A DNA stretch of 48,615 bases from Dehalococcoidia bacterium. GTDB taxonomy: Bacteria; Chloroflexota; Dehalococcoidia; Lucifugimonadales; Australimonadaceae. Both the position numbers and the translations under genes were made by a program. The DNA lies in assembly GCA_021296055.1 (NCBI GenBank), contig JAGWBE010000005.1, forward strand, positions 1 through 48,615, read 5' to 3'. Below are positions 835 through 10,911 of this stretch, piece after piece. How positions within the stretch are numbered: position 1 is the stretch's first letter; every line of letters begins with the position of its first letter. The notes under the pieces were generated by a model. The model was not told where the DNA came from. It ran no database searches and saw nothing but the letters and a program-made list of their open reading frames with translations.

Positions 835-2127
835 CTACGGTCCTTCCGCGCCCCCCATTCGCGCTTGCAGCGTCCGCAGCGGCTCCATCAGCAGCACCGG
901 CAGCAGCGCCGCCAGCGCCACGCCTTCCAATATCCAGATGGCGGCGGTGTAATCCCCCAGCGCGTCGAACATCGCCCCCATCAGGATCGGGCCGACCACC
1001 CCCGCTGCGATGCTCGTCCCCTGTAGCACGCCGATCACGCTGCCTAACGAGCGGTTGCCGAAAATCAACGCGCCCAACGCTCCGCGCATCGGGATTGTCG
1101 CCCCAAAGGCCACCCCGAACAAGAAGGTGAAGGGCAGCGATTCCAGCATCGAGTCGATGCCCGCAACTTGCAAGTAGAGGAACGCCAGCGCCATCGTCAG
1201 CGCCACCGCGGTCAGCACCAGCCGATAGCCCACTTTGTCCAGCAACCACCCCGTGCCTGTCCTGCCGACACCGCTCGCGAAGACGACGATGACCACCGTC
1301 ACCGCCGCCGCCGCCGCGCTAAAGCCCCGGTCGTTAACGAAGTAGGGGATCTGGTGCAGCTGAAAGCCGCTGTTCACGATGAACATCGCCCCCAGGTAGA
1401 ACGACAACAGCCAGAACGCCCGGCTCCGCAGCACTTGCCGCAGCGTCAGCCCCGTTTCGGCGCTACGCGCCGCCGCCCGCAACTGCGCCGGCGTCCCCCT
1501 CGACCCGCCGCCGACCGCGTGCGGCGCGTCGCCGTCCGGCAGCATCCCGTACGCCTCGGGTCTGTCCCGCGCCACGAGACCAAGCGCGGTGACCACGATC
1601 AGCACGACGACGCCGTAGCCGATGAGGATCGGGCGCCAGCCGAACGCCGCGATTAACGCCGTGTTCGCCACCACCATCGGCCCCGCGAAGAGCGGCCCGT
1701 TCACCGCCAGGCCAATGGCCAGCCCCCGCTTGCGCCGGAACCATCGCGCTATCAGCGTCGGCCAGGTAACCCCATGCCCCACCGCCGACGCGCCGAACGA
1801 GATAAGCAGGAAGAAGAAGAAGAAGGTGGCCAGGCTGTTCACCAGCCCCAGGCCAATCAGCCCGACGCCGCACACGACCGCGCCCGCCACGATGAGCTTG
1901 CGCGGACTGAACCTGTCCACGAGCAGCCCCACCGCAGGCCCCAGCACCCCCGTCTCCACCTGGCGCAGCGACGCCGCAGCGGAGATGGCAGAGCGTCCCC
2001 ACCCGAAGTGGCTCTCGATAGGCAGGATGAACGCGCTGAACCCCTGGAAATAGGCGGCGGAGAGGATGGCGTTGGCCGCCATGCTGGACGCGACGATGTA
2101 CCAGCCGTAGAAGAAGCGCGGGCGCAT
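835..2127 (-). CDS. MFS transporter (oxalate/formate-antiporter-like family)
   Basis: 430 aa, hydrophobic throughout with about 12 helix-like segments; N-terminus MRPRFFYGWYIVASSMAANAI. The 533-aa track ORF has a Gly/Arg-rich extension overlapping trpE, so the start was moved to ATG 2127, 14 nt after the trpE stop. Confidence 0.8.
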   Translation of the reverse strand: MRPRFFYGWYIVASSMAANAILSAAYFQGFSAFILPIESHFGWGRSAISAAASLRQVETGVLGPAVGLLVDRFSPRKLIVAGAVVCGVGLIGLGLVNSLATFFFFFLLISFGASAVGHGVTWPTLIARWFRRKRGLAIGLAVNGPLFAGPMVVANTALIAAFGWRPILIGYGVVVLIVVTALGLVARDRPEAYGMLPDGDAPHAVGGGSRGTPAQLRAAARSAETGLTLRQVLRSRAFWLLSFYLGAMFIVNSGFQLHQIPYFVNDRGFSAAAAAVTVVIVVFASGVGRTGTGWLLDKVGYRLVLTAVALTMALAFLYLQVAGIDSMLESLPFTFLFGVAFGATIPMRGALGALIFGNRSLGSVIGVLQGTSIAAGVVGPILMGAMFDALGDYTAAIWILEGVALAALLPVLLMEPLRTLQARMGGAEGP

Positions 2128-2141
2128 CCGCCCCGCCCCGC

Positions 2142-3584
2142 TCACTCCTCCTCCGCGTCCGCGATTGCGCGGAGCGCCGCGCGCGCCTTCACCAGCGCCT
2201 CCAACCGCTCCGCCTCCGGGTCGCTGTCGTACACCACGCCGCCGCCCGCCTGGACGTAGGCCACGCCGTCCTTGACGACCATCGTGCGAATGCCGATGGC
2301 CGTGTCCATATTGCCATCGAAGGAGAAATAGCCCACCGCGCCCGCGTACGGCCCGCGGCGCTCCCCTTCCAACTCCGCGATAATCTCCATCGCGCGTATC
2401 TTCGGCGCGCCCGACACCGTGCCCGCCGGGAAGCACGAGCGCAGCGCGTCGTAGGCCGTCATCCCGTCCGCCAACTCCCCCGTAACATGCGACACTAGGT
2501 GCATCACGTGCGAGTAGCGCTCCACGTCCATCATCTGCGTCGCCCGCACCGTGCCGGGCCTAGCGACGCGCCCCACGTCGTTGCGGCCCAGGTCGAGCAG
2601 CATCACGTGCTCCGCGCGCTCCTTCTCGTCCTGGCGCAGCTCCGCCTCCAATCGCGCGTCCGCCGCCTCGTCGGCGCCGCGCGGGCGCGTCCCGGCGATG
2701 GGGTGCGTGTCTATGCGCCCCTCCTCCACGCGCACCAGCATCTCCGGAGACGCCCCCACGATGGCGAATCCGTCGAGGTCGAGGTAATACATGTAGGGCG
2801 AGGGGTTCACCCTCCGCAGCGAGCGATACAGCTCGAAGGGCGCCGCCAGCGTAGGCCGCGCCAGCCGTTGCGACGGCACCACCTGAATTATGTCGCCCGC
2901 CTCGATGTAGGCGCGGGCGCGCTCCACCATCCCGTGATACTCCTCCGCCGACCTGTTGGAGGCCGCCTCCCTCCCTCCTCTCTCGGCGCTGAGCGCGGGC
3001 GGCGCAAGCGGCTGCGCCAACCGCTCCGCCAGCGCGTCCACGCGCGCGGCGGCGGCGCGGTAGGCGGCGTCCACGTCGCCGTCGATATGCGCGTGGCTCA
3101 CCACCTGAATCTTGTGGCGCACGTGGTCGAACACCAACAGCGTGTCCACGAACAGGAAGACCGCCTCCGGCACGCCTACCGGATCGGCGGCCGGATGAGG
3201 GACGCGCGGCTCGAAGTAGTGGGCGCACTCGAACGCGAGGTAGCCCACCGCGCCGCCGATGAACCGCGGCAGGCCGGGAACCGCCACCGGCGTGAAGCGC
3301 CCCAGCTCTGCCTGCACGTGCGACAGCGGGTCGCCCGCGCCGCCCGGTTGGCCGGGCCCGGTGCGGACGATCCGGTAGGGCTCGGCTCCCATAAAGGAAA
3401 AGCGGCCTAGGCGCTCGCCTCCCTCCACCGACTCGAGCAGAAAGGAGCAGCTGCCGCGCGCAATCTTCAAGTACGCCGACACCGGCGTCTCCAGGTCGGC
3501 GCGGAGCTCGCGGTAGACGGGCACGAGGTTGCCCTGGCGCGCGAGCGCCCTGAACTCCTCCAACGTTGGCGTATGCCGGGCCAT
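2142..3584 (-). CDS. trpE: anthranilate synthase component I
   Basis: LLESVEGGERLGRFSF feedback motif, HPIAGTRPRG, GAVGYFSFDGNMDTAIGIRT, AGGGVVYDSDPEAE. ATG 3584 has GAGG 9 nt upstream; the TTG at 3602 used by the track lies in the terminator U-tract. Confidence 0.9.
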   Translation of the reverse strand: MARHTPTLEEFRALARQGNLVPVYRELRADLETPVSAYLKIARGSCSFLLESVEGGERLGRFSFMGAEPYRIVRTGPGQPGGAGDPLSHVQAELGRFTPVAVPGLPRFIGGAVGYLAFECAHYFEPRVPHPAADPVGVPEAVFLFVDTLLVFDHVRHKIQVVSHAHIDGDVDAAYRAAAARVDALAERLAQPLAPPALSAERGGREAASNRSAEEYHGMVERARAYIEAGDIIQVVPSQRLARPTLAAPFELYRSLRRVNPSPYMYYLDLDGFAIVGASPEMLVRVEEGRIDTHPIAGTRPRGADEAADARLEAELRQDEKERAEHVMLLDLGRNDVGRVARPGTVRATQMMDVERYSHVMHLVSHVTGELADGMTAYDALRSCFPAGTVSGAPKIRAMEIIAELEGERRGPYAGAVGYFSFDGNMDTAIGIRTMVVKDGVAYVQAGGGVVYDSDPEAERLEALVKARAALRAIADAEEE

Positions 3585-3600
3585 TGCCGTTTGCCTCGTC

Positions 3601-3636
3601 AAACAAATAGCCCCGCCCTTCTAAAGGGACGGGGCT
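3601..3636 (-). terminator. intrinsic terminator hairpin (attenuator of trpE leader and/or terminator of the upstream nitroreductase operon)
   Basis: Minus-strand RNA AGCCCCGUCCCUU-UAG-AAGGGCGGGGCU (12 bp with one bulged U) followed by AUUUGUUUG. Confidence 0.7.
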
Positions 3637-3746
3637 TCCGTGGCGCCATCCTTCTTCGCCTGCTGGGCCGCAGCCCTCCGCGGCGCCGCTGCGCGGCCTC
3701 CGTTGCCTACGCCGCGAGTATCGGCGCGCGGGACGCGCCGTGTCAA
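3637..3746 (-). promoter_or_regulatory. candidate promoter plus T-box-like antiterminator element upstream of trpE
   Basis: TTGACA (3746-3741), 18 nt, GATACT (3722-3717). RNA segment AAGGAUGGCGCCACGG (3653-3638) resembles the T-box core AGGGUGGNACCGCG. It can pair ACGG/CCGU and GAAGG/CCUUU with the 5' arm of the terminator, leaving a UGGCGCC bulge. Stem I and the specifier were not identified. Confidence 0.4.
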
Positions 3747-3764
3747 CGCGCCCGGCGCGCGCCG

Positions 3765-4271
3765 TCAGGCGCGTGCGCCGCCGTAGCGCTCGTAGTGGAC
3801 GATCTCAGCGAGGGGCTTGCGGGGGCGGCCGACGCCCACCCTCGCCGGGTCAGGCGGATAGCCGAAGGCCACGGCGTGCAGCACTTGGAGTCCGTCGGGG
3901 AGGCCTAGCACAAAGCGCGTGCCCTCGGTGTCGTGGGTGGTCACGGGACAGGAGGCGATCCCCTCCGCCCACGCGGCCACCATCATGTTCTGGGCGGCGC
4001 GGCCCGCGTCGAACAGGGTGTGCTCCTTTGGCATGGCGATGGCCACCACCCAGGCGGCTTGGGGCACGTGGCGCATGAAGCCGCCGCATGCCGACAACGC
4101 CTCCTTCTGCTCCGCCGTCTCGATGGCGATGAAGCGGTACGGCTGGCGGTTGGTGGACGAGCCCGCCATCCGCCCCGCCTGGAGGATGCGCCGCTTCACG
4201 CCCTCGTCGAGCGGCCTGGCCAGGTAGGAGCGCGAATCGCGCTTCGTGCGGATGGCGGCGTACGCGTCCAC
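3765..4271 (-). CDS. nitroreductase family protein
   Basis: 168 aa. VDAYAAIRTKRDSRSYLARPLDEGVKRRILQAGRMAGSSTNRQPYRFIAI is a typical nitroreductase-fold N-terminus. GTG 4271 has GAGG 6 nt upstream and lies 8 nt after the preceding stop. The rest of the 275-aa track ORF overlaps the upstream gene. Confidence 0.8.
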   Translation of the reverse strand: MDAYAAIRTKRDSRSYLARPLDEGVKRRILQAGRMAGSSTNRQPYRFIAIETAEQKEALSACGGFMRHVPQAAWVVAIAMPKEHTLFDAGRAAQNMMVAAWAEGIASCPVTTHDTEGTRFVLGLPDGLQVLHAVAFGYPPDPARVGVGRPRKPLAEIVHYERYGGARA

Positions 4272-4279
4272 GCAGCGCC

Positions 4280-6034
4280 TCAGCTGGCTTGGGTCTTCTG
4301 GTGGGGGCCGACGTAGCCCACGACCACCTTCTCGAGGTTGGGGTCCCACGCGAAGGCGATGCGAATCATGTTCTGGGGATTGCCCCGGGTGCCCTCGCCG
4401 ATGTGGGCGTCGAGGAGGTAGGTCTTGCCGTTCACTGTCGTCTCGTACTCCTTGGTGAACATCCCTTTGGCCGTGTCGGACTGCTTGCCGCGGTACGTCC
4501 AGCCGTTGCACGCCTCCTTGAGGCGCAGGTCGTACTCCGGGTTCTTGCCAAGGGGCGTCGTCCGCAGGTAGTGGTACTCCGTGCCCAGCCACCGGAGCGC
4601 GTCGTACACCTCCTGCGGGTGCCTGTAGGCCTGATCGGGCCTCGAGGCGGAGTTGAGTTCGATGATGAGCGTATGGGGGAACATCTTCCGCGCCGCCTCG
4701 ATGGCGTCGGCCACGTTCTCAATGGAGAGCGGCTCGATCCCCTCCTCCTCCGCGCGCTGCAAACTGGCGAGGCGCCACGTCTCCACGAGCTGCCTGCTTT
4801 CGCGCAGTTCGCTCCTGAGCTGACTGTTGTCGTCGCTCTGCGTCTCCTTCTCCGTGAAGAGCTTGTCGTAGGCATGCTGCCGCTCCTCGACATGCCCTTG
4901 CAGGCGGCGGTTGTCTTCTTCAAGCTTGGCCTTCTCGACGGCGAGAGCGTCGCGCGCGGCGATGAGGTTGGCCTTCTCCGCTTCAAGGCGCTGGAGTTCG
5001 ACGGAGGGCTCGGCCTTCGGCGGCTGCTCGTCCGGGGCGTCGGCTTCGGCGGCGGCCTGTCCCGCCTTGGCCGCCAGCGCTTGCCACTCGGCGGCGAGGC
5101 GGGCGGCGTCATCGGCGCGGGTGATGCGCTGCTCGGCGCGATGGCGTTCCTCGCTCATCGTAGGAGCGGGGAGGCGCACCTCGGCGAAGGCGGCCAGCGC
5201 CGCGCGCAATTCTTCTAGGATTCGCTTGCCCTCCGGAGCGAGGTCGAGCTGGGCGGCGACCCCTCCGCTGTCCGGGAGGGGCGAGGCTTCGAGGAAGTCG
5301 AGCTCATCACCGAAGTCCTCGACTATCCGCTCCATCTCGCCGGAGATTGCCGCCTCCAAGGCATCGCTGCGCGAGCGCCCCTTCTCGGCGGCCAACTCGG
5401 AGGCCCTCGCGGCGAAGGCGGGAACGTCCGCCCACTCCGGCGCCTCCGTCGGCAGGCCTTCGAGGCGATCGAGCCATTCGGCGAGGAAGCCGGAGATGGC
5501 AGGGTGGTCAAAGGGGAAGCGCCCTGAGAGATAGCTAATCATCAACAGCGCGTGGTCGGCGCTGAATTCGGCGTCCGCGTGCTCCTCGACCAGGCTCTCC
5601 GCCTCCGCGCGGGCCTCGGCCACGGGCCTGAGCGCGTCGAATTGCTCCCGTTTGGGACCAAGAGCGGAGAGGCCGTCGCTTTCAAGGCGGCGGATGGCCG
5701 CCTGAGCGAGTTTGGGCTGCGATTCCCTCCAAAGTTCGAGGACGGCGCCGGCTAGCCGATGGTTCTGGTGCTTGACCATCTCCAGGGAGACCGCGTCCGT
5801 GAGCCTAGCAAGGGGAGCGAGCGCGGCTTTCCTGAAGCCGTCCAACACGATGCCGGAGTTGTCGATGGCCGCGTTGGCGGCGTCGCGGGCGCGCTGGCTG
5901 GCGCGGCTCCGGTGCCTTAGAGCTGCCTCGACCGCATCATGAGCCGAGTCGAACTCGACGCAGCCGAAGACGAACCCCATGCCGGGCATGGGGGAATCAC
6001 CGTGTCTGGCGACACTATCTTGATTCGTAGTCAT
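4280..6034 (-). CDS. hypothetical 584-aa protein: acidic helical N-region, central coiled coil, C-terminal globular domain of unknown family
   Basis: ATG 6034 with GAGGAGG 9 nt upstream. Heptad-like charged stretch ELQRLEAEKANLIAARDALAVEKAKLEEDNRRLQGHVEERQHAYDKLFTEKE. C-terminus ...YLLDAHIGEGTRGNPQNMIRIAFAWDPNLEKVVVGYVGPHQKT. Coding-like GC3 throughout. Confidence 0.75.
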   Translation of the reverse strand: MTTNQDSVARHGDSPMPGMGFVFGCVEFDSAHDAVEAALRHRSRASQRARDAANAAIDNSGIVLDGFRKAALAPLARLTDAVSLEMVKHQNHRLAGAVLELWRESQPKLAQAAIRRLESDGLSALGPKREQFDALRPVAEARAEAESLVEEHADAEFSADHALLMISYLSGRFPFDHPAISGFLAEWLDRLEGLPTEAPEWADVPAFAARASELAAEKGRSRSDALEAAISGEMERIVEDFGDELDFLEASPLPDSGGVAAQLDLAPEGKRILEELRAALAAFAEVRLPAPTMSEERHRAEQRITRADDAARLAAEWQALAAKAGQAAAEADAPDEQPPKAEPSVELQRLEAEKANLIAARDALAVEKAKLEEDNRRLQGHVEERQHAYDKLFTEKETQSDDNSQLRSELRESRQLVETWRLASLQRAEEEGIEPLSIENVADAIEAARKMFPHTLIIELNSASRPDQAYRHPQEVYDALRWLGTEYHYLRTTPLGKNPEYDLRLKEACNGWTYRGKQSDTAKGMFTKEYETTVNGKTYLLDAHIGEGTRGNPQNMIRIAFAWDPNLEKVVVGYVGPHQKTQAS

Positions 6035-6115
6035 CGGAGAAGCCTCCTCGTGAGTTTGGCGCGTTCACTCGCAGTATAGCGCATGCGGAGCGCGGTGGCG
6101 GATGGGCGGCGCGCG

Positions 6116-6964
6116 CTACGGGCGAACGGGCTGGGGCAGCGCTACGCCGCCGAGGCGGGAGCGGGCCATGCGCAGGTAGTTGGCCGTGGCGGCGCGTCCC
6201 ACGACCTCCGGGGAGAGGCTCTTGACCTCGGCGAGCTTGGCCGCGATCTGGGGAAGGTTCCATGGCTCTGTCCAGCGCTCGCGCTTCTTCTTGAAGGGCT
6301 GGGGATAGGAGTCGGTCTCGATGACGACGCGGTCAAGGGGAACCTGGGCGGCGACGACTTCCAGCTCCGGGGAGCGCAGCAACGTCTTGGCGAAGGACAG
6401 GTGGAAGCCCAGGTCGATGACGGCGTCGGCGAGGTTGAGGTCGCCGCCGAAGTAGTGCCACGCCCCGCCGACCTCATTTGCGCTCTCCTCGCGCAGCATG
6501 CGGAGCACCTCGGCGTCGGCGCTGCGGGAGTGGACGACCAGGGGCAGGGCGAACTCACGCGCGAGGCGTATCTGCAAGCGAAATGCGCTCTCTTGCAGGG
6601 CGGCGGGCGGCGATGTGGGCAGCGCATCGAGTCCCGTCTCGCTCCAGACGACGACGGCGGGGTGCTCGGCGATGCGGCGGAGTTCGGCCTCGACAGCGTC
6701 GTCCACGACGGGCGGGAGATCGGTAGGGTGGATGCCGGCACCGGCGCGGATGATGGGGTGCGATTCCGCTAGAACCTGTATGCGGCGGCTAGAGGAGATG
6801 GATACGCCCGCTGCTATGATGAGGCCGACGCCCGCAGCGCTGGCCCGTTCGAGCACTCCCTCGATTTCCGTGCTTGCGTACTGGTCTATGTGCGTGTGGC
6901 CGTCGACAAGGGGAACGGCGGACACGAGCATCCCGGCACCGATGGCCTGCTCCATAGCGGCCAT
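6116..6964 (-). CDS. TatD-family metal-dependent hydrolase
   Basis: VDGHTHIDQY (HxH), GAGIHP, VVHSRSA, IETDSYP. Start is uncertain (ATG 7012, 6964 or 6931); 6931 gives the typical short N-terminus MLVSAVPLVDGHTH. Confidence 0.8.
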   Translation of the reverse strand: MAAMEQAIGAGMLVSAVPLVDGHTHIDQYASTEIEGVLERASAAGVGLIIAAGVSISSSRRIQVLAESHPIIRAGAGIHPTDLPPVVDDAVEAELRRIAEHPAVVVWSETGLDALPTSPPAALQESAFRLQIRLAREFALPLVVHSRSADAEVLRMLREESANEVGGAWHYFGGDLNLADAVIDLGFHLSFAKTLLRSPELEVVAAQVPLDRVVIETDSYPQPFKKKRERWTEPWNLPQIAAKLAEVKSLSPEVVGRAATANYLRMARSRLGGVALPQPVRP

Positions 6965-6982
6965 TGTAGTGGATGCTCCCCG

Positions 6983-8104
6983 ATGGAGCGGCGCTTGATC
7001 ATCCAGGGCCATCTGGAAAGGTTCATTGCCAGCGGATTATTCCGTCGGCTCCAACTTGTCCTCAGCATCGTCGTGGGCGGCGGGCTGGTGTGGCTGGTCA
7101 CGCGCAGCCTGAACTGGTCAGAGGTCGCCGCCACCATTCGCGGGTTCCCCGACCGCATGGAATACGTCCTCCTAGCCATCGTTCCTCTGCTGGTGAGCGG
7201 GGTGCTGCGGGCGGCGCGTTGGCATCTGCTCATGCCCGGCGAGCGCGCCTCCTTCTGGCAGGTGTACGTCACGCAGAACACGGGCATCGGCATCAACAAC
7301 CTGCTGCCCGTCCGCATGATGAGCGAGCCGGTGCAGCTGATCCTCATCACGCGCCGCTACAAGACGCCCTTCTCGACGGCGCTGGCGTCGCTCGTGGCGG
7401 GCAACGTGATGGACATCTTCGCCACGGTGCTGCTGATGGGCCTGGGGTTGGTGTTCGTCAGCTCTCTGCGCGGAGCGAGCATCCAGTTGGCGGGATTCGT
7501 GATCTTAGCGGTGGTGACGATCGTCGTGCTCGTGGTGGCGGCCAGGGGCATCGGGAGCATCCCCGTCGCCCGCGACGCGCGGTTCTTCCAACAAATATCG
7601 ACAGCGGTGGGAGTGCTGCGGGAACATCCATTGCGGCTGGCGGCGTCCTTCGGGGCGACCACGTTGTCGTGGGGGCTGATGGGGATAGCGGGTTGGCTGC
7701 TGGCGCAAGGGGTGGGGTTCGACGCGAACGTGCTGACGATGGCGGTGGTGCTGGTGACGGCAGCCTTCTTCACCTCGGCTGCGCCGTCGTTGCCCGCGGG
7801 CGTGGGGGCGTATCACTGGGCGGTGGTCTACACGTTGGGACTGCTGGGCGTCGGCCAGGAGCAGGCGACAACCTTCGCCTTCATGATGCACCTGCTGGTC
7901 TTCGTTCCTCCCACCGCCATCGCGCTGTACATGCTTTCGCGCGTCGGGGCGGGGATGCTGTTGAAGCGAAACGGTCTGGTGGAGGCGGAGGCGGGGCGGA
8001 CGGCGAGCGTGAACGGCTCCGGCCACCCGCCCGCGCCGGTGGCGGTAGAGGCGCGGGCGCTGCCGGACGCCGGGCGGCGCTTAGCGGACGACCGCCGCGT
8101 CTAG
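6983..8104 (+). CDS. UPF0104 / lysylphosphatidylglycerol-synthase TM-region (flippase-like) membrane protein
   Basis: MERRLIIQG..., multiple TM segments, RAARWHLL and NLLPVR motifs typical of the family. Start moved to ATG 6983 because the earlier part of the track ORF overlaps TatD. Confidence 0.7.
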   Translation: MERRLIIQGHLERFIASGLFRRLQLVLSIVVGGGLVWLVTRSLNWSEVAATIRGFPDRMEYVLLAIVPLLVSGVLRAARWHLLMPGERASFWQVYVTQNTGIGINNLLPVRMMSEPVQLILITRRYKTPFSTALASLVAGNVMDIFATVLLMGLGLVFVSSLRGASIQLAGFVILAVVTIVVLVVAARGIGSIPVARDARFFQQISTAVGVLREHPLRLAASFGATTLSWGLMGIAGWLLAQGVGFDANVLTMAVVLVTAAFFTSAAPSLPAGVGAYHWAVVYTLGLLGVGQEQATTFAFMMHLLVFVPPTAIALYMLSRVGAGMLLKRNGLVEAEAGRTASVNGSGHPPAPVAVEARALPDAGRRLADDRRV

Positions 8105-8108
8105 CAGC

Positions 8109-9701
8109 GTGCGCACGTTAGCGTGGGCGCTCGCGCTTGCGGCGGCGTGCTTGCTCGCCGGAGCGTGCGCCGCGCCCACTCCCACCCCCGAACCCACGCC
8201 GACGCCTACCTTCGCGCCTACCCCAACCGCCGACGTCGGGCCTCCCTCCGATGGCGCGCTGCGCGTAGCGGCGGTGGGCGCGGCGCCGCATCGCGATCTG
8301 CATCGGCTCGTCTCCGAGTGGGCGACACTGTTCGGGCCGGGGTTGGCGTACAGCCGCTTACTGCGGTTCGAGGCGGGGCCCAGAGCGGCGCAGCCCGGCA
8401 TGCACGTTGCGTGCGACCTGTGCCAGGCGTGGCGCGTCTCCCCGGACGGCCTGACCTACGAGTTCGACCTCCACCCGGACGCCGCGTGGGCGTCGGCGGA
8501 CGGCGCGCTCACGCGAGGCGTGACGGCGCAGGACGTCGCCTTCAGCCTCGAACGCCTACGCACGCCGGGGCTGCCGCACGCGTGGCTGCTGGCGGCCGTG
8601 GAGGACATCGAGGTGGCCAGCGATGCGGCCGTGCGCTTGCGCCTGCGCTATCCCGACGCCGACCTGCCGCAGAAGTTGGCGAGTCCCTACGCCGTCGTCA
8701 TGGCGCCGGAGGCGGTGGGCGCGGATCTGCGAACGGGGCCGGTAATCAGCTCCGGCCCGTGGCTGTTCGACCAGGGAGCGTCGGGGCAAGTGTGGCTCAC
8801 CGCGCGGGAGGATTACCACCGCCCTGGGGAGCCGTCGGTCAGCGCATTGGAGATTGTGCCCGTGCGCGACTTCGCCACGGGCGCGGCCTTCCTCAGGGCT
8901 GGACAAGTGGACGCGGCGCAGGTGAGCGCGCGCGAGTGGGCGGAACTGGCGGGCGGAGATATCCGCTCCGTCGTCGTGCGACGGCAGGGGTTCGGCGTCG
9001 CGTTCGGCATGAACGTGCGCGACGGCCCCCTTGCGGACGCGGCGGTTCGGCGCGCGCTCTTCGCTGCGCTCGACCCATGGGCGGCGTTGGGGGCGCTCGA
9101 TCGCCCCGCGTGGGTCGGCGTCGGCGTCCCCGTCATCGAGCCCGATTGGCTGCTACCCGACGAGGAGCTGCGGCGCGTCTTCCGGGGCGAGCAGGCCGGG
9201 GGCGGCGTGGCGGCGTTGACGCTCACCGTCGCCAACTTCGGCGAGGGCTATGCGGCGCACGGCGAGGCGTTGGCGGCGCAGATGCGCGACACGAGCTTCG
9301 ACGTGACGGTGGAGGTCGTGAGTCGTTCCGCCTACTTCCAACGGGTCTGGGAGGAGCGCGACTTCGAGGCGTTCGTCGGGCCGCTCCCGCCCGTGACCAC
9401 CACCGGCTCCTTCCTGCTAGGGCTAGTCCACGGCGACGGCGCGCAGAACGTGTTCGGCCACCAAGACGCAGCGCTCGACGCGCTCATCGAGGCGCAGGCG
9501 GCGGAACCGGACGCAGCGCGTCGCGGCGTCCTAGTGCGCGAGGCGCAGCAGCGCATCCTCGACGATGCCTTCCTGTTCATGCCCGCCATCGCCGCCGAGC
9601 GATGGGCCTACGGCCCCGGCGTGATCGACTTCGCGCCGAACATGCCCGCTGGCGCGGGCGACTTCTGGCGCTACGCCCGCCTCGAGGAGGCGAGCGAGTG
9701 A
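8109..9701 (+). CDS. ABC-transporter family-5 (peptide/nickel type) substrate-binding lipoprotein, no cognate permease/ATPase adjacent
   Basis: Signal peptide MRTLAWALALAAACLLAGAC followed by a Pro/Thr linker. Size and general sequence character fit the SBP_bac_5 family. Starts 4 nt after the upstream stop. Confidence 0.7.
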   Translation: MRTLAWALALAAACLLAGACAAPTPTPEPTPTPTFAPTPTADVGPPSDGALRVAAVGAAPHRDLHRLVSEWATLFGPGLAYSRLLRFEAGPRAAQPGMHVACDLCQAWRVSPDGLTYEFDLHPDAAWASADGALTRGVTAQDVAFSLERLRTPGLPHAWLLAAVEDIEVASDAAVRLRLRYPDADLPQKLASPYAVVMAPEAVGADLRTGPVISSGPWLFDQGASGQVWLTAREDYHRPGEPSVSALEIVPVRDFATGAAFLRAGQVDAAQVSAREWAELAGGDIRSVVVRRQGFGVAFGMNVRDGPLADAAVRRALFAALDPWAALGALDRPAWVGVGVPVIEPDWLLPDEELRRVFRGEQAGGGVAALTLTVANFGEGYAAHGEALAAQMRDTSFDVTVEVVSRSAYFQRVWEERDFEAFVGPLPPVTTTGSFLLGLVHGDGAQNVFGHQDAALDALIEAQAAEPDAARRGVLVREAQQRILDDAFLFMPAIAAERWAYGPGVIDFAPNMPAGAGDFWRYARLEEASE

Positions 9702-10255
9702 ACGCGCCGCTGAGCTTCGAGACGCGTGAAGTGGGCGCGCAGACGTGGCCCGACCTCGAGCGCCTGTTCGAGGCGCGCGGCGGCCCCAGATGGTGCTGGT
9801 GCTCCGTCTTCCGCAGAGACGCAACAGGCCGCAGGCCAAAAGACAGAGAGGGGCAGAAAGCGCTGCTGGAGGGCATGGCGCGCAGAGACGTCCCCGTCGG
9901 CCTCCTCGCCTACTACGGCGGCGAGCCGGTCGCCTGGTGTTCCGTCGCCCCCCGCGAGACCTTCGCCCCCCTAGGAGGCATAGACAACCCCGGCGAGCCG
10001 CCCGGCGCCGTCTGGTCGATCACCTGCTTCTATGTGCGCAGCGCCTACACTCGCCGCGGCATGATGCGCACCCTCATCGACGCCGCCACCGCCTACGCCG
10101 CCCGCAACGGCGCGCAGACCGTCGAGGCCTACCCCGTTCCGCCCGACGCGCCGAGCTACCGCTTCATGGGCTTCACCCCTGCCTTCGCCCAAGCAGGGTT
10201 CGTGGAGGCAGGCCGCGCGGGCAAGCGCCGCATCGTCATGCGCCGGCGAGTGTAG
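9698..10255 (+). CDS. GNAT family N-acetyltransferase
   Basis: GTGA start/stop overlap with the SBP gene. ...GGPRWCWCSVFRR... and RRGMMRTLIDAATAYAARNGAQTVEAYP (acetyl-CoA pocket-like). This is the in-frame tail of the artefactual 710-aa track ORF. Confidence 0.75.
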   Translation: MNAPLSFETREVGAQTWPDLERLFEARGGPRWCWCSVFRRDATGRRPKDREGQKALLEGMARRDVPVGLLAYYGGEPVAWCSVAPRETFAPLGGIDNPGEPPGAVWSITCFYVRSAYTRRGMMRTLIDAATAYAARNGAQTVEAYPVPPDAPSYRFMGFTPAFAQAGFVEAGRAGKRRIVMRRRV

Positions 10256-10308
10256 GGGGCATGCGCGCGTTGACGGACGCGGCGAGGCAGCGCAGCGCCG
10301 CCCCCGCG

Positions 10309-10337
10309 TTGACGCTGCCCCGACAAACGCGTAGACT
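10309..10337 (+). promoter_or_regulatory. sigma70-like promoter of trxA
   Basis: TTGACG (10309-10314), 17 nt, TAGACT (10332-10337). GGAGG SD lies 5 nt before the ATG at 10407. Confidence 0.55.
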
Positions 10338-10406
10338 GAACCTGCGCGTCCGACGCAGGGCGCCGCGAATCGACAGGGCCACAGACGCGCCCTCAGGGAG
10401 GCAACC

Positions 10407-10736
10407 ATGGCGAAGCCCTTTGCCGTAACGGACAGCGACTTCCAAGGCCAGGTGCTCGACGCATCCCAGCCCGTGCTGGTCGACTTCTGGGCCGACTGGT
10501 GCGGTCCCTGCAAGATGATCGCCCCTGTCATCGAGGAGCTCTCGGAGGAGTACGACGGCAAGATCACCTTCGCCAAGGTGGACGTGGACGCCAATCCCAA
10601 GACCGCCATGGACTTCGGCATCCGCAGCATCCCGACACTCCTCGTCATCAAGGACGGCAAGGTCGCCGACCAGGTGGTCGGCGCAGTGCCCAAGACGGTG
10701 CTGAAGAAGGCGCTCGACCAGGCGCTCAGCGGCTAA
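10407..10736 (+). CDS. trxA: thioredoxin
   Basis: 109 aa with VLVDFWADWCGPCKMIAP active site and a full-length thioredoxin fold pattern. Confidence 0.95.
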   Translation: MAKPFAVTDSDFQGQVLDASQPVLVDFWADWCGPCKMIAPVIEELSEEYDGKITFAKVDVDANPKTAMDFGIRSIPTLLVIKDGKVADQVVGAVPKTVLKKALDQALSG

Positions 10737-10772
10737 GGGCGGAGCGCCCGCCGTCAGAGAGTCGATGATGAA

Positions 10773-10812
10773 CGGCGCCCCGGCCCTTCCTGCCGGGGCG
10801 TCGCCGCGTTTT
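10773..10812 (+). terminator. intrinsic terminator after trxA
   Basis: CGGCGCCCCGGC-CCTTCCT-GCCGGGGCGTCG 12-bp stem (one G.T), followed within 5 nt by TTTT. Confidence 0.6.
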
Positions 10813-10814
10813 AC

Positions 10815-10911
10815 GGGAGTGGATAGGTCCCGGTGGGCCTCCCGGTCTTCAAAACCGTTGCCGGGCCAGATTCCTGGTTCGGGGTGGGTTCGACTCCCAC
10901 GCACTCCCGCC
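10815..10911 (+). tRNA. selC: tRNA-Sec (anticodon UCA), selC
   Basis: Acceptor GGGAGTG(G)/(G)CACTCCC; 6-bp D-stem AGGTCC/GGGCCT with 4-nt loop CGGT. Anticodon loop CTTCAAA. Long variable arm CCGGGCCAG-ATTC-CTGGTTCGG. T-arm GTGGG-TTCGACT-CCCAC, discriminator G then CC. Near-collinear with E. coli selC as recalled. Confidence 0.9.

Follow-up and report, generated by a model that had tools for sequence, protein, structure and literature searches.

The described systems closest to the gene reported here are HEC-07 and the Menshen effector NsnC. HEC-07 (Hma-embedded candidate 07) was tested as a 549-aa representative from P. aeruginosa NCTC13717 (WP_039244286.1), and it was among the seven of nine candidates that lowered plaquing in E. 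coli (10.1101/2024.01.29.577857). A RelE-like (HP0892) C-terminal domain, in which H543 is a conserved histidine, has been reported for it, along with an N-terminus that is AdoMetDC-like and thioredoxin-like (10.1101/2024.01.29.577857). The effector domain of Menshen NsnC is PB-BECR1 (PMC12065111). By structure prediction, others have assigned the effector domains of both HEC-07 and NsnC to the RelE/BECR RNase fold (10.1101/2024.01.29.577857; PMC12065111).

Gene structure and the three-part protein

The window, meaning the whole stretch of 48,615 nucleotides that was analysed, carries a gene on its minus strand for a 584-aa protein composed of three parts. The gene and the features relevant to it are as follows.

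4280-6034, minus strand: coding sequence of the 584-aa three-part protein (stop codon 4280-4282)
6043-6049, minus strand: Shine-Dalgarno (SD) sequence GAGGAGG of the 584-aa gene, 8 nt 5' of the ATG
6073-6078, minus strand: -10-like hexamer TATACT, within the 81-nt gap past the TatD stop
5042-5983, minus strand: N-terminal all-helical domain (aa 18-331), putative sensor or regulatory domain, from the AF2 model and family alignment
5000-5041, minus strand: linker (aa 332-345), probably disordered (AF2 pLDDT < 50 at 336-343)
4745-4999, minus strand: single 85-residue helix (aa 346-430), putative dimerising coiled coil, from heptad periodicity
4283-4729, minus strand: C-terminal alpha/beta domain (aa 436-584), RelE/BECR-like putative RNase effector, from HEC-07 and NsnC homology
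4403-4405, minus strand: codon of H544, first of the H-R-H set, kept in 76 of 77 sequences
4361-4363, minus strand: codon of R558, in the 'IRIAF' strand, kept in 77 of 77 sequences
4301-4303, minus strand: codon of H578, six residues from the C-terminus, kept in 77 of 77 sequences
3765-4271, minus strand: 168-aa nitroreductase with a GTG start (PF00881, E = 8e-20)
3609-3636, minus strand: terminator-like hairpin followed by a T-run, between the nitroreductase gene and trpE

The gene runs from an ATG at 6034-6032 to a TGA at 4282-4280, and 8 nt separate this stop codon from the GTG of the nitroreductase. These positions, the SD sequence, the TATACT box and the C-terminal protein sequence are all as given in the original prediction. 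The gene is real, as indicated by a coding pattern of in-frame GC content (GC1/2/3 = 0.70/0.45/0.85), a whole-gene dN/dS of 0.22-0.32 against three orthologues, and a full-length AlphaFold (AF2) model with a pLDDT of 89.7. A promoter of its own had also been proposed. However, only the -10-like hexamer was found, with no matching -35 element, and a sigma-70 scan of positions 3500-6400 calls no full promoter there. A promoter at TATACT is possible but unsupported. The nitroreductase gene is probably co-transcribed with the 584-aa gene, and the hairpin at 3609-3636 may either end this transcript or serve as a leader element for trpE. An Rfam scan of the whole window found tRNA-Sec alone.

The predicted layout of an acidic N region, a coiled coil and a globular C-terminus holds by isoelectric point, heptad test and AF2 model. 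The N region has a pI of 4.86, and the conserved positions of its helical domain are nearly all hydrophobic, including an invariant W102 and M165. This domain has no relatives in Pfam, NCBIfam, PHROGs or PDB, and no structural neighbour by Foldseek. The hydrophobic a/d pattern of the helix at 346-430 was equalled by just 4 of 2000 shuffles, and the C-domain that follows has the order strand-helix-helix and then a beta-sheet. Pfam, NCBIfam and PHROGs searches with the full protein and 77 family members returned coiled-coil noise alone, and PDB sequence searches (with a profile that includes the coiled coil and with a C-domain-only profile) returned coiled-coil proteins or chance matches.

The three parts evolve at different rates. 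Values of dN/dS are lowest in the C-domain (0.11-0.17), intermediate in the N-domain (0.18-0.36) and highest in the coiled coil (0.39-0.47). The C-domain is on par with neighbouring genes, and the other two parts evolve about three times faster than those genes.

Relation of the C-terminal domain to HEC-07, NsnC and RelE-type toxins

The protein was originally regarded as an orphan that could not be placed in any family. However, it matches the four PADLOC models for HEC-07 (PDLC04158-04161), with E = 2.2e-16 for PDLC04161, 5.7e-13 for PDLC04160, 7.5e-07 for PDLC04159 and 3.9e-06 for PDLC04158. All 28 family C-domains examined match HEC-07 models as well. The HMM alignment pairs residues 348-584 with positions 315-553 of the 553-position profile, so that about 43% of the profile is covered up to its last position. 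The coiled coil (346-430) aligns with the segment of the HEC-07 HMMs that corresponds to residues ~315-399 of HEC-07, which are heptad-rich too. H578 of 584 and H543 of 549 lie at an equal six-residue offset from their C-termini, an indirect equivalence given that the HEC-07 sequence compared ends at residue 399.

The remaining N-terminal ~310 residues of the two proteins are unrelated. Residues 1-310 of HEC-07 gave an hhalign probability of 0.2 against the family profile and no phmmer match in either direction, and by phmmer they match 11 further proteins, which have the C-domain but an N-terminus unlike the one described here. Judged from sequence comparison, the 584-aa protein is a domain-swapped sister of HEC-07, in which the coiled coil and the putative effector are kept and the N-terminal module differs.

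A relationship to NsnC is also apparent. The NsnC model PDLC03912 matches 16 of the 28 family C-domains (E <= 0.01; best 4.9e-7), and the match of the 584-aa protein itself is marginal (E = 0.0025 for the domain alone and 0.032 for the full-length protein). The terminal beta-hairpin (h-R-I-x-F-x-W-D ... VV-x-GY-x-G-x-H) had been read as a toxin/effector-type signature, and this reading agrees with the homology of the C-domain to the HEC-07 effector and its relationship to Menshen NsnC.

Direct comparisons with RelE-type toxins are less decisive. The order of secondary-structure elements in the C-domain fits the BECR fold, in which helices pack against a four-stranded antiparallel sheet. Among the top 50 Foldseek PDB matches for the C-domain, 25 are RelE/YoeB/HigB/ParE-type toxins, HP0892 included, but none is significant (best E = 0.09; target-normalised TM at most 0.48). 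At E <= 0.001, Foldseek returned nothing for the C-domain in PDB or BFVD, or for the full-length model in PDB. None of the 28 C-domains matches the Pfam RelE, ParE, YafQ, YoeB or HigB families at E <= 10, and a PDB profile search with the C-domain gave no RelE-superfamily match. When the C-domain profile was aligned by hhalign to single RelE, YoeB, YafQ, HigB and ParE proteins, the probability was at most 1.1, and the toxins were inseparable from the controls MazF, thioredoxin, CheY and barnase. The residues R558, G576 and H578 are spaced like R61/G79/R81 of RelE and D67/G85/H87 of YafQ, yet an ungapped motif alignment with these toxins has the right spacing without differing statistically from other offsets. 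Because these Foldseek, Pfam, hhalign and motif tests are non-significant, the BECR fold assignment rests on transitive homology to the domains assigned by others. We infer that the C-domain acts as an endoribonuclease with the RelE/BECR fold and would use H544, R558 and H578.

One might instead view the protein as a coiled-coil scaffold without catalytic activity, with a C-domain that has degenerated into a BECR-like binding module. A long coiled coil joined to a helical domain is typical of structural proteins, and no characterised RNase is matched significantly. However, the histidine, arginine and histidine are invariant or nearly so, along with N461, Q518, Y530 and D564, and all of them lie where constraint on the protein is strongest. 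In addition, the C-domain is homologous to domains in the effector position of two defence systems. We regard a scaffold role as improbable.

Family distribution and genomic context

An exhaustive phmmer search with the C-terminal 160 aa yielded 679 cluster representatives (E < 1e-3). Most are 520-650 aa in length and carry the C-domain at their extreme C-terminus. The N-domain is colinear in 95 of 159 retrieved proteins, and a profile adds ~22 more (~117 of 159, about three quarters). A total of 403 loci are scattered among 185,579 GTDB species genomes, and genes with this N-domain type are found mainly in MAGs of Chloroflexota, Gemmatimonadota, Acidobacteriota and uncultured Pseudomonadales. 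The sole named member of the family is labelled a hypothetical protein by NCBI.

Several observations relate to mobility. Pairs from different phyla share up to 66-78% identity, some genomes carry two copies at 86-100% identity, and in one genome a family gene is carried by a ~10-kb repeat with integrase-like ORFs. No matches were found by tblastn of the N-domain against plasmids or of the whole protein against phages, and IMG/VR holds only two contigs with relatives, both of the short form. Genes of the 584-aa type are essentially missing from phages and plasmids. The short forms consist of the coiled coil and C-domain only, and there is also a split form in which one ORF encodes the N-domain and another encodes the coiled coil and C-domain. 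Short stand-alone C-domain proteins can be accepted only in part as proof of modularity, as the one checked in its context (P0006) is a split full-length gene that is probably frameshifted.

In the window, the neighbours of the gene include TatD, nitroreductase, trpE, MFS, thioredoxin and Mfd. Metabolic or housekeeping neighbours, rather than defence islands, surround the gene both here and in seven other contexts annotated with Pfam. Sister contigs carry a type IIG restriction-modification gene, a toxin-antitoxin pair and a recombinase 1-5 kb upstream. No partner gene or small ORF is kept across syntenic groups by ORF clustering or by tblastx of the 600-700-nt flanks, which revealed nothing beyond synteny inside lineages and chance matches of GC-rich sequence. 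Likewise, no adjoining gene is conserved across these groups as a cognate antitoxin would be.

The original prediction paired the protein with the nitroreductase, and possibly with TatD, as a two-gene stress or defence effector. The 8-nt gap and overlapping SD sequence are kept in all six sister loci, and the TatD neighbour has a weak match to QatD. However, the gene is missing from all 80 loci with nitroreductase homologues (42-67% identity) that were compared. A nitroreductase lies directly downstream in 6 of 84 family loci examined, all from the clade of the window itself, and in two other family loci a homologue is found upstream, encoded on the opposite strand, so that any nitroreductase is nearby in just 8 of 84. 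In two loci (L087 and L089) the nitroreductase gene adjoins trpE and the 584-aa gene is absent. The first of these is an empty site in a close relative, and a related contig has the order sortase-nitroreductase-trpE without the gene. TatD is adjacent in just one other family locus and is not a conserved neighbour. As a QatD candidate, the TatD protein scores 80.7 bits with the NCBIfam model against a cut-off of 230, and housekeeping TatD/YchF models match it best. A QatD identity is rejected. The pairing model is highly improbable and is already refuted at the comparative level. The nitroreductase is a neighbour by lineage-specific synteny and not a partner. Tight translational coupling of this kind can stem from simple insertion beside an unrelated gene, and it is no proof of functional pairing. 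The broader suggestion of a stress or defence function stays plausible through homology and not through genomic context.

The same context data bear on whether the protein is a cellular RNase, retained within lineages for a role in stress or in the control of translation, which might cleave ribosome-associated mRNA under starvation when the N-domain senses a cellular signal. In every context examined with this N-domain type the gene is solitary, with metabolic and housekeeping neighbours, and its position is stable across several species within lineages of Dehalococcoidia, Chloroflexota and Pseudomonadales. Purifying selection overall, absence from phages and near absence from plasmids also fit such a role. 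However, the patchy spread of the gene, the high cross-phylum identity, the multi-copy elements with integrase-like ORFs, the empty site in a close relative and the rapid evolution of the N-domain and coiled coil relative to neighbouring genes all speak against it. Moreover, just one protein with this effector module has been tested, and it is a candidate for phage defence. We consider a cellular role of this type unlikely.

Another model treats the gene as a toxin fused to its antitoxin, or as a selfish maintenance module. The N-domain would act in cis as the antitoxin, and its loss or cleavage would free the RNase and stabilise the carrier element or region. A RelE-type effector without a separate antitoxin, copies on repeated elements with integrase-like ORFs, and the existence of short and split forms are all in keeping with this model. 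Plasmid-borne short relatives also adjoin RelE/ParE, HipA and IS elements. However, most copies are chromosomal, solitary and away from recognisable mobile elements, and the sole split copy examined is the one that looks frameshifted. There is also no obvious mechanism for differential stability within a single polypeptide, and we find this model distinctly unlikely.

Proposed function and comparison with known systems

The explanation that best fits these data, with about an even chance of being correct, is that the protein acts on its own as a dimeric toxic RNase under sensor control, in phage defence or a similar conflict. The coiled coil at 346-430 would dimerise the protein, and the fast-evolving N-domain would keep the RNase inactive until it encounters a trigger, most likely a phage component. 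Cleavage of RNA (tRNA, or mRNA on the ribosome) would then halt translation and abort infection. A separate antitoxin would be unneeded because regulation takes place within the same polypeptide. Co-transcription with the nitroreductase would be incidental and would follow from insertion, or retention, of the 584-aa gene immediately 5' of a nitroreductase-trpE pair that is older.

Some features of the gene count against this explanation. Its neighbours in the window and in the seven other contexts do not form defence islands, its position is kept within lineages, which is unusual for defence genes, and it is nearly absent from phages and plasmids. In addition, a dimer of a 584-aa protein may be unable to enter the ribosomal A site in the way that small RelE toxins do.

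A bolder version of the defence explanation holds that the helical N-domain is a previously unrecognised sensor fold, and that the ~580-aa architecture is a distinct single-gene immune system, a HEC-07 sister with an exchanged sensor. Such a system would have spread horizontally among unrelated symbiont phyla (Chloroflexota, Gemmatimonadota, Acidobacteriota, Bacteroidota and Pseudomonadales), apparently for the most part in communities associated with sponges and corals, and would then be retained there on the chromosome, outside defence islands. We put this forward tentatively, as a possibility that is somewhat doubtful as a whole. This form is probably unlabelled in current annotation, with just ~43% of the HEC-07 profile matched. 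If the defence reading is right, putative toxic RNases go unrecognised by the hundreds in genomes of uncultured symbionts.

In comparison with small RelE, YoeB, YafQ and HigB toxins, the C-domain has the same secondary-structure order and a terminal hairpin with a basic strand residue and a His or Arg two residues past a conserved Gly. Unlike RelE-type toxins, the 584-aa protein has an extra N-terminal subdomain and an insertion, is six times larger and has no antitoxin gene. The family is a natural experiment in how a RelE-type nuclease might stay silent without an antitoxin. Like Menshen NsnC, it has the conserved H-R-H set in a domain that forms the C-terminal output of a larger protein. 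However, NsnC has an inactive-PIN (inPIN) N-domain, whereas the N-domain of the 584-aa protein is helical and not Rossmann-like. Moreover, NsnC acts with NsnA (ParB-DUF262) and NsnB (ABC ATPase-DUF3696), and the window and related loci lack both.

The resemblance to HEC-07 is closer. Both are single proteins of ~550-580 aa in which a heptad-rich helix leads into a RelE-like domain at the C-terminus, homologous between the two, and neither has a separate antitoxin. The differences lie in the N-terminal part, which is all-helical (aa 18-331 of the AF2 model) in the 584-aa protein, and in the setting. HEC-07 types are found in defence islands or Hma systems, and one such gene (P0093) adjoins a SNF2/NOV_C helicase, a toxin-antitoxin pair and CBASS, whereas genes with the N-domain type described here stand alone among housekeeping genes. 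If our interpretation holds, HEC-07 represents only one version of a modular family that joins a coiled coil and a RelE-like RNase output to interchangeable N-terminal inputs. The commonest input among the 159 relatives would be a domain that is unnamed in databases and unlike any solved structure, and the modularity of the family would be comparable to that of Avs, CapRel and the Menshen effectors.

The 584-amino-acid gene and its site

The gene is encoded on the reverse strand, and the following features are relevant to its expression and that of the genes downstream.

4280..6034, reverse strand: CDS of 584 aa (ATG 6034-6032, TGA 4282-4280)
6049-6043, reverse strand: Shine-Dalgarno (SD) sequence GAGGAGG, 8 nt 5' of the ATG
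6078-6073, reverse strand: TATACT -10-like box, inside the 81-nt interval downstream of the TatD stop codon
3746-3717, reverse strand: good sigma-70-like promoter TTGACA-18 nt-GATACT, between the nitroreductase stop and trpE
3636-3609, reverse strand: strong terminator-like hairpin and T-run, immediately before the trpE start

This is a genuine gene rather than an artefact of high GC. GC content at its codon positions 1, 2 and 3 is 0.70, 0.45 and 0.85, an overlapping antisense ORF has the mirror pattern, dN/dS against three orthologues is 0.22-0.32, and an AlphaFold2 full-length model with 77 homologues as input has a mean pLDDT of 89.7. The SD and TATACT elements named in the original prediction are present in the sequence. 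The promoter that had been proposed for the gene is possible but lacks support: a sigma-70 scan of 3500-6400 does not score the TATACT box as a complete promoter, and the sole promoter-like site in this interval lies between nitroreductase and trpE. The short ORF in the trpE leader lacks Trp codons and Rfam returns nothing there; the hairpin may belong to a trpE leader/attenuator or may end the upstream transcript.

As predicted, a 168-aa nitroreductase begins with GTG 8 nt after the TGA, and its GAGG overlaps that stop codon. This gap and the gene-nitroreductase-trpE order are kept in all six sister loci (protein identity 67-84%), where the upstream neighbor varies among TatD, RecO and sortase. 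The proposal of an effector pair with nitroreductase or TatD is refuted by comparison, because the pairing is confined to these six loci of the window's clade. Among the remaining 78 of the 84 family loci compared, a nitroreductase is nearby in two, on the opposite strand, and TatD adjoins the gene in only one other family locus. Conversely, the family gene is missing from all 80 metagenomic loci with a nitroreductase homologue (42-67% identity). One related locus (L087) has the order sortase, 190 nt, nitroreductase, trpE, with a sortase 61% identical to that of sister contig L001, relative to which it is an empty site. Nitroreductase-trpE is the older unit, beside which the family gene was inserted or deleted. 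Gene and nitroreductase probably share a transcript, but they are not functional partners. The TatD protein was also considered as QatD, but it scores 80.7 bits against a cut-off of 230 and is of the housekeeping type. Elsewhere in the window, a thioredoxin gene and mfd flank a tRNA-Sec gene (anticodon TCA, 10815-10911, forward strand; Rfam RF01852, 71.8 bits), whose presence implies selenocysteine use by the organism.

Architecture and distribution of the family

The predicted three-part layout holds in both the sequence and the AlphaFold2 model. The first 300 residues are acidic (pI 4.86) and helical, residues 346-430 are modeled as a single 85-residue helix whose heptad a/d hydrophobic pattern is matched by only 4 of 2000 shuffles, and residues 436-584 are modeled as a compact alpha/beta domain. 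Nearly all conserved positions in the N-domain are hydrophobic, which points to binding or regulation rather than catalysis. The C-domain evolves at the pace of neighboring genes (dN/dS 0.11-0.17), with faster change in the N-domain (0.18-0.36) and coiled coil (0.39-0.47). Relative to the window protein, the family's median identity falls from 43% in the C-domain to 29% in the N-domain and 21% in the coiled coil.

Although the protein had been described as an orphan, it is matched by the PADLOC models for the candidate phage-defense protein HEC-07, and an exhaustive HMMER search with residues 425-584 recovers 679 cluster representatives sharing the C-domain at E <= 1e-3 (347 at E <= 1e-10). 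Most matches are 520-650 aa with the C-domain at the extreme C-terminus. A word-indexed search with the full protein gave just five close homologues (67-96% identity, Chloroflexota MAGs), because coiled-coil words saturate the index, and Pfam, NCBIfam and PHROGs return coiled-coil noise alone. Of the 159 retrieved proteins, 95 have a conserved, colinear counterpart of residues 1-300, and a profile of the region adds about 22.

With each GTDB species represented by one genome, a scan gives 403 family loci. The best 80 of these are MAGs without exception, from Dehalococcoidia and other Chloroflexota, Pseudomonadales including Ca. Azotimanducaceae, Gemmatimonadota and Longimicrobiales, Acidobacteriota, and Bacteroidota. 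Many of the carrier names (loci L005-L084 and the L173 sample) are ones we take to denote MAG sets from sponge or coral symbionts (RHO, SB, Plut, Langseth, ROBB21, Ca. Azotimanducaceae and long-read 'chromosome' MAGs). Judged from isolate and sample names only, an enrichment of the family in marine host-associated consortia is possible. One member, P0096 (L173 9001-11205, 734 aa), carries an extra winged-helix domain ahead of the helical N-domain, with PHROG replication-initiator/DnaD-like matches (1e-8 to 1e-9) and a Pfam HTH_36 match, which hints at a link to nucleic-acid binding.

The C-terminal domain and candidate functions

All four PADLOC HEC-07 models match the window protein. The best (PDLC04161, E = 2.2e-16) aligns residues 348-584 with profile positions 315-553 of 553, and the alignment starts within the coiled coil because residues ~315-399 of HEC-07 are also heptad-rich. 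When 28 diverse C-domains are scanned alone, all match HEC-07 models (best 3.4e-22) and 16 match a model for NsnC of Menshen (best 4.9e-7). We have little doubt that the C-domain is homologous to the HEC-07 effector region.

A His/Arg/His set is conserved in an alignment of 77 sequences (H544 in 76, R558 and H578 in 77), together with N461, W512, Y530, G548, G573 and G576. H578 lies six residues from the C-terminus, the same offset as H543 of HEC-07 (549 aa). The spacing of R558/G576/H578 equals that of R61/G79/R81 in RelE and D67/G85/H87 in YafQ, whose reference sequences were checked against PDB chains. An ungapped motif alignment to RelE ranks this offset first, but by only one point.

The suggested Foldseek comparison of the C-domain model with the PDB gives nothing significant (best E = 0.09), although RelE/YoeB/HigB/ParE/HP0892 toxins constitute 25 of the top 50 matches, none significant, and recur with the full-length model. 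For the C-domain, nothing is returned by Pfam toxin models, by a PDB profile search or by hhalign against individual toxins. Independent confirmation of the fold is weak, and the RNase assignment therefore relies on transitive homology and conserved residues. On balance we lean toward RNase activity; a non-catalytic scaffold is less likely.

We propose that the C-domain is a BECR/RelE-type endoribonuclease, that the coiled coil dimerizes the protein, and that the N-domain would hold the nuclease silent and free it upon binding a trigger. The trigger would most plausibly be a phage product, leading to translational arrest or abortive infection. Phage defense is a tentative assignment, and its main rival is a cellular RNase for stress or translation control. 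ORF clustering of 84 related loci and the window reveals a lineage-specific, conserved housekeeping neighborhood in each group, with neighbors including an ABC-F ATPase, S9 peptidase, sugar-binding protein, cation antiporter, lactate permease, SDR and CreD, and with no gene shared among the syntenic groups. Four further contexts of members with the window-type N-domain are likewise metabolic by Pfam annotation. Such solitary settings, stable within lineages, favor the stress RNase. A member with the HEC-07-like N-terminus, P0093, resides in a classic defense island with an SNF2/NOV_C helicase, an HTH-SecB toxin-antitoxin pair and CBASS.

The stress RNase fits less well with a patchy, transferable and indel-prone distribution. 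Identity across phyla reaches 78% (Gemmatimonadota vs Acidobacteriota) and 66% (Bacteroidota vs Gemmatimonadota), three genomes hold two copies at 86-100% identity, and seven loci have integrase-like ORFs near the family gene. In one two-copy genome, both copies lie inside a ~10-kb repeat with integrase-like ORFs. Sister contigs carry, a few kb upstream, a type IIG restriction-modification gene, a DUF4258/DUF2283 pair or a serine recombinase. These features indicate an accessory, partly mobile family. A fused toxin-antitoxin or maintenance module is a less likely reading of such a family.

Contigs L053 and L054 of one Vicinamibacterales MAG share an apparently identical repeat of ~10 kb (~1046-10800) that looks like a multi-copy integrative element; it bears the family gene, integrase-like ORFs and, judged by eye, a replication-relaxation-like wHTH ORF. 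OZ242312.1 (Gemmatimonadota) carries two copies at 96% identity (L062, L068). Upstream of the sortase-gene-nitroreductase block, L001 and L002 (1-7000) encode a 1064-aa type IIG enzyme and the DUF4258/DUF2283 pair, and L003 (1-7000) a serine recombinase and RHH protein. The family protein is identical in these contigs, and the region 1-5 kb away from its gene is variable and island-like.

Relation to HEC-07

The tested HEC-07 is P. aeruginosa WP_039244286.1, for which the supplement gives residues 1-399; the authors describe residues 1-310 as AdoMetDC-like and thioredoxin-like (bioRxiv 10.1101/2024.01.29.577857). The window type instead has an all-helical N-domain, and hhalign detects no similarity between the two (probability 0.2). 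Among the 159 proteins sharing the C-domain, about 117 have the helical module, 24 are short forms, and 11 match HEC-07 residues 1-310, none of them window-type. The C-terminal module is therefore joined to at least two unrelated N-terminal modules.

Among the short forms, at least P0006 is a split full-length gene, probably frameshifted. Two IMG/VR contigs encode a 264-aa form, and a few plasmids encode forms of 321-363 aa. The latter include proteins of conjugative plasmids from Bradyrhizobium (pBoOM27, L086 6350-7441) and Delftia (L085 6440-7405), annotated as hypothetical and with C-domain identity of 26-30%. The pBoOM27 gene neighbors a TrlF-family ATPase, RelE/ParE plus HTH, DUF2130 and IS elements; the Delftia gene neighbors HipA and PhoH. 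On a 3.2-Mb Dehalococcoidia-type contig (L167 7046-8768), a 316-aa N-domain ORF and a 255-aa coiled-coil/C-domain ORF lie 4 nt apart, and the alignment loses register near residue 293. A frameshift (pseudogene or assembly error) is the probable explanation, and a genuine two-gene version is less probable.

The helical N-domain is new, with no name in the databases searched and, by Foldseek of the full-length model, no structural neighbor in the PDB. HEC-07-based annotation probably leaves the window type unlabeled, because only ~43% of the profile is matched and the sole annotated member is named a hypothetical protein by NCBI. The result is a sizeable unrecognized family of putative toxic RNases, mostly in uncultured, apparently host-associated bacteria, and the window type is a sister form of the HEC-07 candidate with a swapped sensor and far more members.
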